From Candidatus Latescibacterota bacterium (lineage in GTDB: Bacteria > Krumholzibacteriota > Krumholzibacteriia > WVZY01 > JAKEHA01): a stretch of DNA of 64,000 nucleotides. How positions within the stretch are numbered: the first letter of the stretch is position 1; each line of letters opens with the position of its first letter. The DNA is taken from contig OY970173.1 of the NCBI GenBank assembly GCA_963707635.1, positions 2,272,001-2,336,000 of the forward strand, read 5' to 3'. A model generated the notes under the pieces. The model saw only the letters and a program-made list of their open reading frames with translations, had not been told where the DNA came from and ran no database searches. Position numbers and translations under genes: made by a program. This document shows positions 55,398 to 62,498 of this stretch, in pieces.

Positions 55398-56309
55398 TCA
55401 ACGGCCCGTGTTCGGGCCGCCGTTGCCGTCGGCGTTTTCGTTCTTCTTTTCCAATTCGATCACCCGCCCGTTCTCCTTGAACTCCACCGAATCCATTATG
55501 TTGCGCATCAGGTAGACGCCGCGCCCCGACGAGCGCAAGAGCGCGTCGCCCCGGGTGGGGTCCGCCACCTTCGCCAGGTCGAATCCCTCGCCCTCGTCCC
55601 GGACCCGCATGCGGAACCGGTTCGGACTCGCGTAGATCTGGATGCTCACCTTCTTGTCGGGCTGCGAACGGTTGCCGTGCACGATCGCGTTGGTGATCGC
55701 CTCGTCGCACGCGAGCGGAACGTTGACGCGCGTATCCTGGGGCGGGAACCCGAATTCCTTGAGCAGATTCGAAATGTGGTAGTTGATGCCGATGACATAG
55801 GTCAGGTCGCTGGGGATGACGAAATCCATCCGCACCGTGGATCGCCGCATCAGGTCCGGGTGGCGCTTGAAGTTGGGAACGTTGGGCAGCGCGGTGGCGA
55901 TCTCGCGCGAGAGATTGATGCGGCCAAACGGCGGGAGCAGAATGCCGTGCACGCCGATGGATTGCAGTCGCAGCGAACTCTGCTGGTCGCAGGTGTCGAG
56001 CACCGCCAGGACTACCAGCTGCGGAAAGTCGAGGCGCAGGCGGCGCAGCGCGGGCACGTCAATGGCGTCGCCGCGCGGCTCGACCAGAAACACGAAGGCC
56101 AGCGCGATCCGTTCGAGTTGCGCCAGCGCGCGCGCGAGGTCGGCGACACCGGCGAAGCGGGCGGCGCCCGGCGGCGCGTCCTCGCATTCACGATACACGC
56201 GCTCGAGAAACGACGGGTCGGAAGAAACCAGGTAAACGGCCCGTTCGCCGCGCGCCGGAAGGGCGGCGGGACGGTCGCCCGAGGTGGAATCAGAAGACTT
56301 TCTGGCCAT
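55398..56309 (-). CDS. RsbW/SpoIIAB-like anti-sigma Ser kinase (HATPase_c_2) with degenerate receiver-like N-domain
   Basis: EAITNAIVHGN, VRDEGEGFD, SGRGVYLM. Confidence 0.82.
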   Translation of the reverse strand: MARKSSDSTSGDRPAALPARGERAVYLVSSDPSFLERVYRECEDAPPGAARFAGVADLARALAQLERIALAFVFLVEPRGDAIDVPALRRLRLDFPQLVVLAVLDTCDQQSSLRLQSIGVHGILLPPFGRINLSREIATALPNVPNFKRHPDLMRRSTVRMDFVIPSDLTYVIGINYHISNLLKEFGFPPQDTRVNVPLACDEAITNAIVHGNRSQPDKKVSIQIYASPNRFRMRVRDEGEGFDLAKVADPTRGDALLRSSGRGVYLMRNIMDSVEFKENGRVIELEKKNENADGNGGPNTGR

Positions 56310-56793
56310 TGGCCAAGATCTCGTTCAACGCTTCCTTGAAGTAGTTCGTCGAGTGAGCGGTCTCCGGCCCGACCTTCTCCTTATAGAGCTCCCACGACTT
56401 CTTGATCTCTTCGCCAAGCGTCGTCATGAGGGTCCCGTCTTTGAGCGCCTGGTCGCGCTTCTCGCGGTTGTACCACAGAATGTCGGAAACGAGAACCCTC
56501 GCCAATCGTTTCGCGCGATCCTCGCCGGAGCGTCCCCCGCGGGCGGTAGCCTCCTCCGGCCCCGCGGCCGGAGCGGCCGCCGGCGATTCCGCTGCCTGCT
56601 CCAGCTCGACCGGGCGCGTCGGCGGCGCTTCGACGGCTCCCCCCACCGCGACCCCGACCGGAACCCGCGCCGGGCGCGGGGCCAGCATGAACACCGCCCG
56701 GCACTTCGGGCACCGGACCTTGAGCGGGTTCGCCGGGATCTTTTCCTCGGGCAGGAAGTATTTTGCAGCGCAACTCTGGCACTGAATGATCAT
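56290..56793 (-). CDS. MJ0042-type zinc-ribbon protein with conserved helical C-domain
   Basis: MIIQCQSC..KY...VRCPKC..F; C-domain AKRLARVLVSDILWYN. Confidence 0.85.
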   Translation of the reverse strand: MIIQCQSCAAKYFLPEEKIPANPLKVRCPKCRAVFMLAPRPARVPVGVAVGGAVEAPPTRPVELEQAAESPAAAPAAGPEEATARGGRSGEDRAKRLARVLVSDILWYNREKRDQALKDGTLMTTLGEEIKKSWELYKEKVGPETAHSTNYFKEALNEILANGQKVF

Positions 56794-58102: not shown

Positions 58103-60220
58103 TCATGCGACCGTCATGACCCGGGATCCCTCGTCGTCGGACAGCACCGCCCGCAGATGCTCGCGGCATCGCCGGCCGTCGGCGCCGGAGAGCCCGGCGT
58201 CGCGGTCGAGGAGCGACTTCACCGCCCGGCTGGCGCGCTCCACCAGCCCGCGGTCGCGCAGCGGGTTCGCCACCCGGAAGCCGGGCACGCCGTGCTGGCG
58301 CGTGCCGAGGAATTCGCCTGGGCCGCGCAGCCGCAGGTCCTCCTCCGCGATCCTGAATCCGTCGTTCTCGCGCACGAGCGCGCCGAGTCGCTCCATGGCC
58401 TCCGGTGACGCGCCATCGCCCACCAGCAGGAAGCAGAATCCGTCGCGCCCGCCACGCCCGACGCGCCCCCGGAGCTGGTGCAGCTGCGACAGGCCGAATC
58501 GTTCGGCCTGATGGATCGCCATGATGGTCGCCTGGGGAACGTGGACGCCCACTTCCACCACCGTCGTGGTCACCAGCACCCGCACCACGCCGGCCCGGAA
58601 CGCCGCCATCACCTCGTCTTTTTCCGCCATCGACATGCGTCCGTGCAGGATCGCCATCGGGACCCCCTTCAGCGCCCCTTCGGAAAGCTCGGCGTGTGCG
58701 GCTTCGGCCGCCTCCATGTCCTGCTTTTCCGACTCCTCGATCACCGGGTAGAGCAGGTACGCCTGCTCGCCGGCGCCCTGCCGGTCGCGGATGTATTCGT
58801 ACATCGCCTCCCGCTTCTCCGGCGGGACCACCCGCGTCTTGACCGCCGCGCGCCCCGGCGGCAGCTCGTCGATGACCGAAAGGTCGAGGTCGGCGTAGGC
58901 GGTGAGTGCCAGCGTGCGCGGTATCGGGGTCGCCGTCATCACGAGCATGTGGGGATCGCCGGCCAGCAGCGCGGCCCGCTGGCGGACCCCGAAGCGGTGC
59001 TGCTCGTCGATCACCACCAGGGCGAGGCGCTTGAACGCCACCTCCGCCTGAATCAGCGCGTGCGTGCCGACCACCGCGTGAATCGTACCCGCGCGGAGTC
59101 CTTCGTGCACCCGCCGCTTCTCGGCGGGCTTGAGGGAACCGATCAGGAGCGTCATCGACAGCCCCAGCCGTTCCATGTGCGGCACCAGGGTGCGGAAGTG
59201 CTGCACCGCCAGGATCTCCGTCGGAACCATCATCGCCGCCTGGTGGCCGGCTTCGATCGCGGCCAGGAGTGCGGCGGCCGCCACCACCGTCTTGCCGGAA
59301 CCGACATCCCCCTGCAGCAGGCGATTCATGCCGGGGGCGGTTTCGAGGTCGGCGTGGATCTCGTCCACGACGCGCCGTTGCGCGGCGGTGAGCGGGAACG
59401 GCAGGGCGGCCAGAAACCGCTTCTCGAGCTCGAACGGCACGCGGAGGCGCGGACGGCTGGTGCGTTCCATCCGCCGCCGGCGCCGCAGCGAGAGAACGAG
59501 CTGCATGTAGAACAGTTCCTCGAGCTTCATCCGCTCCAGCGCCTGCTCAAACGCGCGTTCGTCGCTCGGAAAGTGCATGGACTGGAGCGCCTGGAAGCGC
59601 GACGGCGTCGCCGTGTCGAGTACGTCGTCGGGCAGCGTCTCGGGAACCGCGTCGTGGTAGGCGTCGAGCACACGGGCCACGAGGGCGCGCAGGTACCGCT
59701 GGCTGATGCCCGCCGTCAGGCGGTACACCGGCACGATACGCCCGCCCGTCTCGGTCTCGCGCGGATCTCCCTCCCCCTCCACGTACTCGAATTCCGGGTT
59801 GACCACCTGGCGCTGTCCGCGAAAGAACGCGAGCCGACCGCTCACGATCAGTTCGCGACCGGGCTTGAGGTGACGAACCAGGTAGGGCTGGTTGAACCAG
59901 ACCACCTGCACGATCCCGGTGTCGTCTCCGAGTGCCGCGATCACCATCGAGCGCCGGCGAAACGGCGAGCGCTGCGTGACCGAAAGGACGCGGCCCACGA
60001 ACGTCTCCTCGACGCCGGGGTGCAACGACGCGATGGGGGCCAGCCGGCGGCGGTCGTAATACGTGCGTGGGAAGTGGGTCAGGAGGTCGTTGACGTTCTC
60101 GATCCCGAGGCGCCGGAGCGCTTCGGCACGAGTAGGTCCCACGCCCTTCAGGAACTGGCAGCCGTCCTCCAGGGAGCGGGCATTGCCCGCGTCGTGCGGC
60201 CGCGCGGCATGTGCTGGCAT
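58103..60220 (-). CDS. recG: ATP-dependent DNA helicase RecG
   Basis: LKGVGP, LLQGDVGSGKT, DEQHRFGV, MTATPIPRTL, QLRGRVGRG, DLRLRGPGE; AAGGAG SD. Confidence 0.97.
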   Translation of the reverse strand: MPAHAARPHDAGNARSLEDGCQFLKGVGPTRAEALRRLGIENVNDLLTHFPRTYYDRRRLAPIASLHPGVEETFVGRVLSVTQRSPFRRRSMVIAALGDDTGIVQVVWFNQPYLVRHLKPGRELIVSGRLAFFRGQRQVVNPEFEYVEGEGDPRETETGGRIVPVYRLTAGISQRYLRALVARVLDAYHDAVPETLPDDVLDTATPSRFQALQSMHFPSDERAFEQALERMKLEELFYMQLVLSLRRRRRMERTSRPRLRVPFELEKRFLAALPFPLTAAQRRVVDEIHADLETAPGMNRLLQGDVGSGKTVVAAAALLAAIEAGHQAAMMVPTEILAVQHFRTLVPHMERLGLSMTLLIGSLKPAEKRRVHEGLRAGTIHAVVGTHALIQAEVAFKRLALVVIDEQHRFGVRQRAALLAGDPHMLVMTATPIPRTLALTAYADLDLSVIDELPPGRAAVKTRVVPPEKREAMYEYIRDRQGAGEQAYLLYPVIEESEKQDMEAAEAAHAELSEGALKGVPMAILHGRMSMAEKDEVMAAFRAGVVRVLVTTTVVEVGVHVPQATIMAIHQAERFGLSQLHQLRGRVGRGGRDGFCFLLVGDGASPEAMERLGALVRENDGFRIAEEDLRLRGPGEFLGTRQHGVPGFRVANPLRDRGLVERASRAVKSLLDRDAGLSGADGRRCREHLRAVLSDDEGSRVMTVA

Positions 60221-60230
60221 CGACAACTCC

Positions 60231-60259
60231 TTGCGCCGTAAGCGGCGTTCTGGTATGGT
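60231..60259 (+). promoter_or_regulatory. Putative rpmB promoter (TTGCGC-N17-TATGGT, extended -10)
   Basis: Correct spacing in the recG/rpmB divergent gap. Confidence 0.5.
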
Positions 60260-60301
60260 ACGGCAACCCCACCCCGGGGGTCTATAACGGAGGTTCATGG
60301 C

Positions 60302-60493
60302 ATGAGTCGTCGATGCGCGGTGTGCGGGAAGGGGCCCATGGTCGGTCACAAGGTGAGCCACGCTCACAACCTGACCAAGCGCCGCTGGCTTCCCAATCTT
60401 CAGAAGATCAAGATCGAGTCCGCCGGCAGGGTTCACGCCGCGTATGTCTGCACGGGCTGCATTCGCACCGGCAAGATCCGGAAGGTCGTTTAG
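60302..60493 (+). CDS. rpmB: 50S ribosomal protein L28 (Zn-binding CxxC type)
   Basis: [34 protein letters not shown]. Confidence 0.97.
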
Positions 60494-60527
60494 CGCGCGG
60501 TTTCGCACCGCTTCGCGCCGAGTCTTC

Positions 60528-60561
60528 AAAGCGCCCCGCACCCCGGTGCGGGGCGTTTTTG
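60528..60561 (+). terminator. Intrinsic terminator after rpmB
   Basis: CGCCCCGCAC..GTGCGGGGCG stem followed by TTTTT. Confidence 0.85.
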
Positions 60562-60677
60562 CTTGCCGGCGGGGCCGATGGCTGAGGCGATTCTGGAGCC
60601 CGGCGTACCAACGCCTTGCGGCTACGAACGCGACCCGGGGCGGGCCGATCTTTTTTGAGCGATCGACCGGCCGGGCG

Positions 60678-60706
60678 TTGACGCCGGCGGGTTACCGGAA
60701 TAGACT
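60678..60706 (+). promoter_or_regulatory. Sigma70 promoter (TTGACG-N17-TAGACT) of a candidate sRNA
   Basis: Consensus-like hexamers 7 nt upstream of the hairpin; no plus-strand gene follows. Confidence 0.7.
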
Positions 60707-60713
60707 TTCGTAC

Positions 60714-60830
60714 GGAAGGGATTCTCGAGACATCGTCAGCCCGTTAGTTCTGGGACAAAGTTTCCTCTTCCTGTATCCCCGTTCCAAGAAGTTTCGGCCG
60801 ACGTGTCAGCGGGAACCCTTTCTTTTTTTT
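60714..60830 (+). ncRNA. Candidate rod-shaped small RNA, family unrecognised
   Basis: 5' GGAAGGGATTCTCG-A-GACATCGTCAGCC pairs with 3' GGCCGACGTGTC-AG-CGGGAACCCTTTC, including G-U pairs and bulges; inner stem; T8 tail; own promoter. Confidence 0.7.
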
Positions 60831-60842
60831 GGGTGCGGGCGG

Positions 60843-62498
60843 CTACGTGTCGGGGAGCGGAATCTTGTCGACCGTGAGCAGTGTCCGCGCCATCACGTCC
60901 GCCGGGTGGCGCCCGATGAACTTGCGCAGTTCCCGGTCCGCGTCCCGTCCCCGCCCCTCACGCCGCAACGCCACCACCAGCCCGAAGACCGCGCCGGGAA
61001 AGTCCGGATTGATCGCCATCGCCTGCCCGTAGGCCGCCTTCGCCAACCCGGCGTCTTCCGTGCGCAGCAGCACGTCGCCGCGGATCTTGTGCAGGTCCGC
61101 GAAGTCGGGATGGGCGTCGATCGCGGCGTGAATCTCGCGCAGCGCGCCGGCGTGGTCCCCGCGGCGCGATAGCACCAGCGCGAGCTTCTTGCGCGCATCC
61201 ACGTAGCCGGCGTTGATCGCCAGCGTTTCCTGGAGGCAGCGCTCCGCTTCGTCCAGGCGTCCGAGCTCCATCAGCGCCGTCCCCAGCAGACAACGCGCGT
61301 CCGCGTGGCGCGGCACCCGGTCCAGCACCGCCTCGAACTCGGCAACCGCGACGGCCCAGTCGCCCACGCCGAGCGCGTGCAGGCCGCGTTCGAGGTGCGC
61401 CGCGAAGAGGTCCGGCTTGAGCTCGATGGCGGTGCGAAGCGCGACACCGGCGCGCTCGCTCTCGCCCAGCGCGTGGCAGGCGAGGCCGAGCAGGTAGTGC
61501 GCCTTCGCATACGACGGGGCGACGGCCAGCGCCCGCTCCAGCAACTCACGCGCCCGCTCGAATTCCCCGAGCGCGAGGCGGGTGAGCCCCGCCTGGCAGA
61601 GCACGTCGGCGAACTCGGGCTGCGACGCGAGCGCGCGGTCGAGCTCGTCGGCGCTCGCCGCGTACTCCGCGATCCGAAACCACGCCACCGCCAGGCAATA
61701 GCGGGCCTCGGTGTACCCCGGGTTGATCTCGAGCGCGCGCTGGAACGAGGCCACCGCGTCTTCCCCGCGCCCCGCCTCGAGCCGCGCCATCCCCAGGCGC
61801 GCGTGCAAATCCGCGTAGCCGGGGTGCTCGGCCACCGCCGCGGCAAACAGCGCGCAGGCGCGCTCGTAGTCGCCGGCGTTGAACGCGTTGGTCGCCTCGC
61901 GGACCGATTCGGCGTAGCCGCCGCTCTCGCTCACCAGCCCGCGCAGTTCCTGCAGGGCGGGAAGGTCGAAGGCGCGCGCGTCGAGCTTCTCGACCAGCAC
62001 GCGGGAGAGCGGGTGCGGGGTGCGCCGGACGATGTCGAGGGCGCGGCCCAGCATTTCCGAGGCACGGTCGAAGTAGCCCGCGTCGTAGCAGGCGATGCCG
62101 AGCAGGCAGATCGCCTCCGCGTACTCGGGGTTGATGTCGAGCGCGCGGGTCAGCGAGTCGATGGCGGCGGAGAGATTCCCGGCCTGGTGCTCGACGGCGC
62201 CGAGGTAGAAATAGAGGTCGGGGTAGCGGGGATTCTCTTCGAGGGCGACGGAGAAGTGGGCACGCGCCCGGTCGAGTTCACCGCGGTGGAAGTGGGCCAC
62301 GCCGAGTTTGGCGTGCGCCTCCGCCGCGTAGAAGGCGCCCAGTTTGGCGAAGGGGTTGGCGTGCCGGGCGCCGCCCGCGACCACTTCCTCGAGCACACGC
62401 GCGGCCTCGTCGTAGTTGCCTTCGTTGAAAAGACGAATGCCGCGATGGTAATGGTCGCCGGCGGTGCCCCTCAACAACCGAGTCCAGAACGACACCAA
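60843..62498 (-). CDS. TPR-repeat protein
   Basis: Many TPRs with recurrent P.(Y/F)AD motifs; GGAGG SD; downstream of ftsZ. Confidence 0.88.
   Translation of the reverse strand: MVSFWTRLLRGTAGDHYHRGIRLFNEGNYDEAARVLEEVVAGGARHANPFAKLGAFYAAEAHAKLGVAHFHRGELDRARAHFSVALEENPRYPDLYFYLGAVEHQAGNLSAAIDSLTRALDINPEYAEAICLLGIACYDAGYFDRASEMLGRALDIVRRTPHPLSRVLVEKLDARAFDLPALQELRGLVSESGGYAESVREATNAFNAGDYERACALFAAAVAEHPGYADLHARLGMARLEAGRGEDAVASFQRALEINPGYTEARYCLAVAWFRIAEYAASADELDRALASQPEFADVLCQAGLTRLALGEFERARELLERALAVAPSYAKAHYLLGLACHALGESERAGVALRTAIELKPDLFAAHLERGLHALGVGDWAVAVAEFEAVLDRVPRHADARCLLGTALMELGRLDEAERCLQETLAINAGYVDARKKLALVLSRRGDHAGALREIHAAIDAHPDFADLHKIRGDVLLRTEDAGLAKAAYGQAMAINPDFPGAVFGLVVALRREGRGRDADRELRKFIGRHPADVMARTLLTVDKIPLPDT

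Follow-up and report, generated by a model that had tools for sequence, protein, structure and literature searches.

A predicted rod-shaped small RNA of one Krumholzibacteriia order with a terminal loop likely to pair with two other non-coding RNAs

The window analysed here is a stretch of 64,000 nucleotides from a Candidatus Latescibacterota genome (GCA_963707635.1, contig OY970173.1), referred to as G000 in Table 1. Downstream of rpmB, which encodes L28 and has its own terminator, the window contains a small RNA gene that we named RNA1, followed by a convergent gene for a TPR protein. In another part of the window (55398-56793, minus strand), genes for a zinc-ribbon protein and for an anti-sigma-factor-like ATPase were observed downstream of recG and ada. 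The positions of RNA1, of its parts and of the two RNAs with which it is predicted to interact are given in Table 1.

Table 1. Positions of RNA1, its neighbours and its predicted partner RNAs. Positions are those of the window unless a contig or locus is named.
Feature	Position	Strand	Details
Sigma-70-type promoter	60678..60706	+	TTGACG 60678-60683, 17-nt spacer, TAGACT 60701-60706
RNA1, 109-nt irregular rod, 5' end paired with 3' end	60714..60822	+	folding, covariation, homologs
Apical stem closing the loop	60748..60790	+	60748-60756 paired with 60781-60790, one bulged A
24-nt terminal loop, predicted pairing surface	60757..60780	+	unpaired probability, low opening cost
Invariant 10-nt loop core CCUCUUCCUG, complementary to RNAs A and B	60764..60773	+	identical in 30/30 homologs
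6-nt loop extension, covaries with RNA A, not with RNA B	60774..60779	+	pairing counts across genomes
T8 tail, likely RNA1 3' end	60823..60830	+	sequence
rpmB (L28) with own terminator, context	60302..60560	+	gene 60302-60493; terminator 60532-60560
TPR-protein gene, convergent to RNA1, context	60843..62498	-	downstream of ftsZ
RNA A, predicted ~270-nt intergenic non-coding transcript	G000:C1 ~313346 to 313078; L173:1505-1776	-	between selB and NFACT gene
RNA A pairing site, 16-nt perfect complement of RNA1 loop	G000:C1 313282-313297	-	weak match in RNA1 copy search
RNA B, predicted ~200-nt intergenic transcript	G000:C1 ~1218060-1218257; L203:1513-1723	-	divergent from LysR gene
RNA B pairing site	G000:C1 ~1218144-1218157	-	second match to RNA1 loop

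The promoter of RNA1 is the only promoter-like site between positions 60000 and 61500, where shuffled sequences gave 0.1 ± 0.3 such sites, and the rod begins 7 nt past its −10 element. The minimum free energy of the rod is −42.8, with a z-score of −2.2 when the flanks are included. In this genome the loop core had an unpaired probability of 0.68-1.0, and opening the loop costs 0.4 kcal/mol. The sequence-only reading had described the promoter, the start of the hairpin 7 nt beyond it, the inner stem with its 24-nt loop, the T8 end and the convergent next gene, and all of them were confirmed in the sequence. It had also proposed a second fold in which the 5' GGAAG pairs with the loop; this fold is 17 kcal/mol costlier (−25.3 vs −42.6) and is not conserved, since GGAAG begins only 9 of 30 RNA1 homologs. 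A copy search found one full copy of RNA1 in this genome, and a repeat element or mobile palindrome, for which many copies would be expected, was discarded.

The same cassette was seen downstream of rpmB in relatives. The order to which this genome belongs comprises 36 genomes in two families, f1 (23 genomes, this one included) and f2 (13 genomes). With a search model (R1) built from 21 copies on the default RNAalifold fold, 151 genomes of the class were searched and RNA1 was detected in 30, counting this one; the others are 29 of the 35 remaining genomes of the order (16/22 in f1 and 13/13 in f2). None of the 115 class genomes outside the order gave a match; stricter filters, with which weak matches can be lost, applied to the whole search. 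A single match per genome was obtained in 28 of the 30; the other two showed a duplicate match at a contig start (G032) and a weak self match on the opposite strand (G005). Six f1 genomes carry RNA A (see below) without a detected RNA1: three of them have no rpmB match, two are fragmented, and in one the contig stops 155 nt past rpmB. A pattern search of five of these six genomes for RNA1 gave no match either. A pattern scan over 185,579 species returned 102 loci, and the RNA1-bearing records that name a lineage name Candidatus Krumholzibacteriia or Latescibacterota. When 91 loci (82 from the pattern scan, three viral and six rpmB loci of other families) were submitted to the model search, only L079, L052 and L055 scored high. 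Locus L079 is titled as a beta proteobacterium, but it is about 80% identical to, and colinear with, window positions 59288-62268, and thus probably belongs to the order under a wrong label. The three viral pattern matches failed the model search and were rejected.

RNA1 is independent of rpmB, because about 1 kb of other DNA lies between the two in G023 and 9 of the 30 RNA1 loci gave no rpmB. In six loci (L161, L167, L170, L172, L164 and L166, belonging to three genera of f1 and some genomes of f2) RNA1 was observed with recG and the TPR gene; rpmB gave no match in these loci at E 1e-6 and was matched only weakly elsewhere in their genomes, where L28 may be displaced or diverged.

The promoter is shared by 29 of the 30 homologs, 5-9 nt ahead of the stem, and the thirtieth is truncated by the contig start. 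The rod is 100-112 nt long in the 30 homologs, in which no conserved open reading frame was found. The T-rich tail is less constant, however, since only 22 of the 30 have a tail with at least five T in 8 nt. The fold z-scores have a median of −3.6 and lie below −2 in 28/30, and the plus strand folds more stably than the minus strand in 25/30. For the covariation analysis we used the rod obtained from the 30-sequence alignment by RNAalifold with RIBOSUM scoring. In this structure 89% of the cells are paired and two-sided changes occur at 17 of 32 pairs, compared with 11.5 ± 1.6 two-sided pairs in shuffles and 39-59% paired cells in slid registers; these counts lean towards the rod, given that the structure was derived from the same alignment. 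Most of the covariation is carried by the outer helix (14 of 21 pairs), while the apical helix (helix 3) is 87.8% paired and shows two-sided change at only 2 of 8 pairs. Some positions of the rod are themselves invariant, among them one U-G pair in 30/30. A different inner fold was given by default RNAalifold, and in three genomes of f2 the minimum-energy fold is branched, with part of the core paired. The loop core CCUCUUCCUG is invariant in 30/30 and mostly unpaired. These results agree with the earlier proposal of structure at the RNA level and indicate that the RNA1 element is not a chance feature.

We then compared RNA1 with known RNA families. No relevant Rfam match was obtained for RNA1, or for the RNAs A and B described below, in this genome and six loci of relatives, so that the Rfam comparison suggested by the sequence-only reading did not assign RNA1 to a known family. 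The same reading had considered a compact 6S-like RNA polymerase decoy. As described in passages of PMC10578484, 6S RNA is about 200 nt long and has a large central bubble between two helices. RNA1 resembles 6S RNA (Rfam RF00013) in its rod shape, its paired ends and its own strong promoter, but at 109 nt it has about half the usual length of 6S, and it lacks the bubble: the longest stretch without pairs, terminal loop aside, measures 2 nt here and 2-7 nt across the 30 homologs. In addition, no 6S or 6S-Flavo match was detected between 60300 and 61200 at E up to 10, a canonical 6S RNA is encoded elsewhere in the genome (72.5 bits), and a decoy function would leave the covariation with RNA A unexplained. 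We therefore regard a 6S-like decoy as extremely unlikely. The absence of SRP features claimed before agrees with the lack of an RF00169 match in RNA1, and a canonical SRP RNA lies elsewhere in the genome (74.3 bits). A bacterial Y RNA is expected to have a Ro60/TROVE partner encoded in the same genome; no TROVE match was found in this 96% complete genome, and this candidate, which also lacks an Rfam match, was rejected. A literature search by lineage and by core motif found no published description of RNA1, RNA A or RNA B; supplements and subscription papers could list them. RNA1 thus represents a real RNA gene family without an earlier description, outside any Rfam family.

The RNA1 loop is complementary to a site in a second predicted non-coding transcript, RNA A, which is unlinked to RNA1 and present in 36/36 genomes of the order. 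In 34 of these 36 genomes RNA A is preceded by a sigma-54-type promoter pattern, and the transcript ends at a terminator. A 23-nt motif of RNA A occurs in 36/36 genomes of the order and in 0/172 other genomes of the phylum, the same range as that of RNA1. In the 3' domain a covarying closing helix of 12 bp presents this near-invariant motif as a hairpin, and the domain folds apart from the RNA1 binding site. Eight 5' domains were folded, and in four of them, all f2, a hairpin encloses the covarying part of the site; the opposite strand of this hairpin resembles the RNA1 loop, and an open purine run adjoins it. Since tmRNA, tRNA-Sec and RNase P RNA are present elsewhere in the genome, RNA A and RNA1 are not a split replacement for any of them. 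Between selB and the RNA A promoter, an 83-aa open reading frame with a hydrophobic N-terminus was observed in one locus (L002:1729-1980, minus strand), without a Pfam match.

Among 2291 seed-containing sites of this genome, the one in RNA A comes first once RNA1's own opposite strand is set aside, with an energy of −31.8 kcal/mol compared with −28.3 kcal/mol for the next site. In nearly all genomes the predicted duplex has 13-16 contiguous bp. Core positions 3-9 are paired with RNA A in 30/30 genomes, and extension positions 10-15 in 26-30/30, with A-U, G-C and U-A swaps; at position 11 the pairs are A-U in 17 genomes, G-C in 12 and U-A in one, and at position 13 they are C-G in 16, U-A in 12 and U-G in one. 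Over the 30 genomes, 379 of 390 cells are paired in register, whereas six slid registers gave 181-217. As a further control, RNA1 was combined with swapped RNA A partners: the energy is −34.7 for own and −31.1 for swapped partners (0/100000 permutations), and the difference persisted within the families (9/100000 in f2 and 666/100000 in f1), the genomes being kin and hence not independent in any of these tests. Parsimony on a five-marker tree placed six two-sided events in G026, in G017, in G024 plus G029, on two f2 branches and in G020, compared with 0-2 events when the register was slid. As the G020 event lies where the extension is broken and both f2 branches may share one event (node support 0.22), it is safer to count four to five independent lineages. 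The clearest case is G026, one of two genomes with an RNA1 change right past the core, in which RNA A is altered to match and the run reaches 18 bp.

Opening energies were calculated with the 5' domain of RNA A only, in 28 of the 30 genomes, and with a 150-nt part of RNA B. After opening, the net energy of the RNA1:A interaction has a median of −19.5 kcal/mol and is at or below −8 in 27/28 genomes. In G020, where the extension is broken, it is −2.4. Eight genomes have a C-U mismatch within the core, and in f2 the extension is also constrained by RNA A's own hairpin. The RNAs have separate promoters, and their conserved complementarity is one between independently transcribed non-coding RNAs, which is one feature of sponge pairs.

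Purine-rich 10-mers are common (67 k-mer matches of 10 nt in this genome) and only four to six independent events underlie the covariation, so we considered that the complementarity could be due to chance or be the relic of an old inverted duplication, and that RNA1 acts otherwise, for instance by binding a protein. A relic, however, would decay instead of swapping pairs on both sides in separate lineages, and the 11 additional exact sites examined in relatives lie within open reading frames or on the opposite strand, while the sites in A and B are conserved in position. For this reason we consider such an origin very unlikely.

A second match to the loop lies in RNA B, which was found in 21/23 f1 genomes and in none of the 13 f2 genomes; there is one further match in another family and a second one in G002. 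The site in RNA B is invariant and is predicted to pair with RNA1 in 16/16 genomes at 11 positions, forming in f1 a duplex of 11-12 contiguous bp that is shifted to the 5' side of the loop. The extension of RNA1 is paired with RNA B in only 0-7 of 16 genomes per position. The RNA B site does not covary, and what supports it is therefore its invariance and its position. RNA B also contains two other invariant C-rich motifs. Behind a purine run, an invariant 16-nt stretch with an ATG start was observed in RNA B, with frame lengths that vary among genomes. Given that both RNAs have highly conserved motifs of their own outside the RNA1 site, A and B are not bare decoys. Taken together, the comparative evidence is strong for RNA1:A pairing and good for RNA B, and we consider it very probable that RNA1 pairs with RNA A and RNA B. 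This supports the earlier suggestion of a stand-alone structured RNA gene whose exposed pyrimidine loop would base-pair in trans, and it is likely that RNA1 and RNA A pair up and neutralise each other.

To look for expression we used assembled contigs of RNA runs, which do not reveal ends, strand or level and in which a part without coverage proves nothing. A discrete RNA1 transcript, anticipated by the sequence-only reading, did not appear: in the 4 runs considered of 24 there is no discrete or deep RNA1 contig, an RNA of about 110 nt being one that may be lost in library preparation, and RNA1 was covered only by contigs of depth 2.3-3.7 running into its flanks. The small word shares of the RNA1 region in the RNA runs came mostly from rpmB and the flanks. 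RNA A, by comparison, was covered in three of four runs by contigs with depths of 2979 (156 nt, with one difference, spanning the pairing site), 2337 and 154-166, whereas its flanking genes had depths of 2-5; the fourth run had no contig on RNA A. In one of the runs, two contigs terminate in adapter letters, about 10-15 nt inward of where RNA A is predicted to begin. These observations hint that RNA A is an abundant RNA. In one contig (X5, with a depth of 166) the sequence skips back by 110 nt (L173:1574-1683), joining the ends of the RNA A 3' domain; this joint may stem from a circular form, from processing or from a template switch.

The pyrimidine-rich loop had been interpreted as the anti-SD surface of a base-pairing sRNA. 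The part of this proposal that concerns pairing in trans is borne out by the partners described above, which are two non-coding RNAs, but the mRNA SD targets did not emerge: among 2682 gene starts, which are our own rough calls here and in the searches below, none stands out (best −23.5, mean −10.0, sd 3.5), and candidates such as rpoA and an epimerase resemble ordinary strong SD sites. No standout mRNA target was found at these rough starts for the RNA A or RNA B motifs either; three gene starts matching an RNA B motif were explained by an upstream stop codon and discarded. An order-wide search for the pattern followed by ATG gave 252 matches vs 150 in the control, a difference confounded by coding sequence. 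Since the core is fixed in f2, where neither RNA B nor another exact non-coding 13-nt site was detected, and the extension covaries freely, the core presumably has further partners.

We propose the following model. RNA1, with its own sigma-70-type promoter, covarying rod and invariant unpaired core, would be made steadily, and its loop would form 13-16 bp with RNA A and, in f1, 11-12 bp with RNA B. The core may nucleate on the open purine run of RNA A, from where pairing would spread through the six covarying bases and open the RNA A hairpin. The length of the duplex would make a chaperone unnecessary, and clearance could be carried out by RNase III or RNase E/G. RNase III, RNase E/G and sigma-54 are encoded in the genome; Hfq, ProQ and CsrA were not found with Pfam models in this 96% complete genome. 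RNA A, from its sigma-54-type promoter, and RNA B, divergent from the LysR gene, are presumably induced by signals; they would then titrate RNA1 and release its mRNA targets. The direction in which RNA1 is the regulator is favoured by the fixed core in f2, by the polarity of the RoxS-RosA and SisA-CrfA pairs and by the apparent excess of RNA A. For the whole chain, in which RNA1 is an anti-SD regulatory sRNA sponged by inducible A and B, direction included, we estimate a probability of about 0.5.

The same pairing can be read in the opposite direction, with RNA1 as a steadily made threshold sponge without mRNA targets that absorbs and destroys low levels of inducible A and B, the latter being the real regulators and acting through their own C-rich motifs. 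A constitutive sponge that absorbs noise is known in 3'ETS-leuZ. The loop is the sole conserved single-stranded element of RNA1 and its best site is the one in RNA A, no mRNA target of RNA1 stands out, and the near-invariant 23-nt hairpin of RNA A and the two invariant C-rich motifs of RNA B could be effector elements. One RNA that binds two unrelated RNAs, moreover, is the topology of RosA, CrfA and QrrX, and it fits RNA1 as the sponge equally well. On the other hand, RNA1 would bind A and B outside their presumed seeds, these seeds have no standout mRNA target, the invariance of the core in f2 is unexplained by RNA A alone and, as a weak argument, RNA A contigs are deep where RNA1 is not seen. 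We regard RNA1 as a threshold sponge as a possible but rather doubtful explanation.

RNA1 could also be a trigger or structural partner instead of a sponge: toehold strand displacement in the 5' domain of RNA A would activate or release the 3' domain, or both RNAs would form a stable two-RNA particle with a protein. This is suggested by the covarying RNA A site placed in a hairpin beside an open purine run (4/8 folds, all f2), by the 12-bp covarying helix that closes the 3' domain, by the contig joining the ends of this 110-nt domain and by the invariant positions of the RNA1 rod, the U-G pair among them. However, the 3' domain folds apart from the binding site, so no coupling is predicted; the joint comes from one contig of one run and is possibly a template switch; and RNA B has a different architecture with the same site. 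A role as trigger or structural partner thus appears unlikely. It is likewise improbable, to a similar degree, that the three RNAs form a chaperone-free, RNA-only logic circuit in which the constitutive rod RNA reads two unrelated signal-induced RNAs via one loop and, by toehold strand displacement, either switches or sets free the 110-nt effector domain of the abundant RNA A; if true, unlinked genes would be connected by a switch in which one RNA triggers another, and not by a sponge.

RNA1 supplies a candidate partner for the order-wide sigma-54 RNA A. The natural compensatory alleles, such as those of G000 and G026, allow a direct in vitro test of the pairing, and covariation between genes is suggested as a general route to the RNA networks of uncultured bacteria.

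By analogy, RNA1 would work like the known sRNA-sponge pairs. In Bacillus subtilis, according to the consulted passages of PMC8216469, RosA is a transcriptionally regulated sponge of RoxS and FsrA that shortens the half-life of its partner, and the RNAs involved are, as here, stand-alone sRNAs whose C-rich regions pair with G-rich regions. A relation in sequence is not expected, and the count is reversed in our case, with one C/U-rich RNA facing two RNAs with purine sites; in addition, a rod would form the 13-16 bp duplex through its terminal loop, and both A and B have extra conserved motifs. In Caulobacter crescentus, CrfA is described in part of PMC12559287 as an Hfq-dependent sponge of SisA-D in which each RNA lowers the other and, as predicted for RNA1, a conserved 10-nt pyrimidine core pairs with the G/A-rich loop of an induced RNA. 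In both pairs, as far as these passages describe them, the regulator carries the C/U-rich seed, and the induced sponge provides the purine decoy (PMC8216469; PMC12559287). SisA-D, as presented there, are four paralogs with a weak hairpin, whereas RNA1 is single-copy and a full rod, and Hfq was not found here.

The Qrr RNAs are under sigma-54 control. In Vibrio cholerae, QrrX is a sponge of Qrr1-4 that is driven by a LysR-type regulator and depends on Hfq, and the duplex is cleared by RNase E (cited passages of PMC9732341); RNA B resembles it in adjoining a LysR gene. There the Qrr RNAs and the LysR-driven RNA pair together, while here the sigma-54-type RNA A and the LysR-adjacent RNA B both carry one site matching a third RNA. 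The sRNA-sponge pairs compared above came, in the parts of the sources cited, from cross-linking or ligation in cultured model bacteria, whereas the pair described here was derived from genomes alone, through compensatory changes between unlinked RNA genes of an uncultured lineage.
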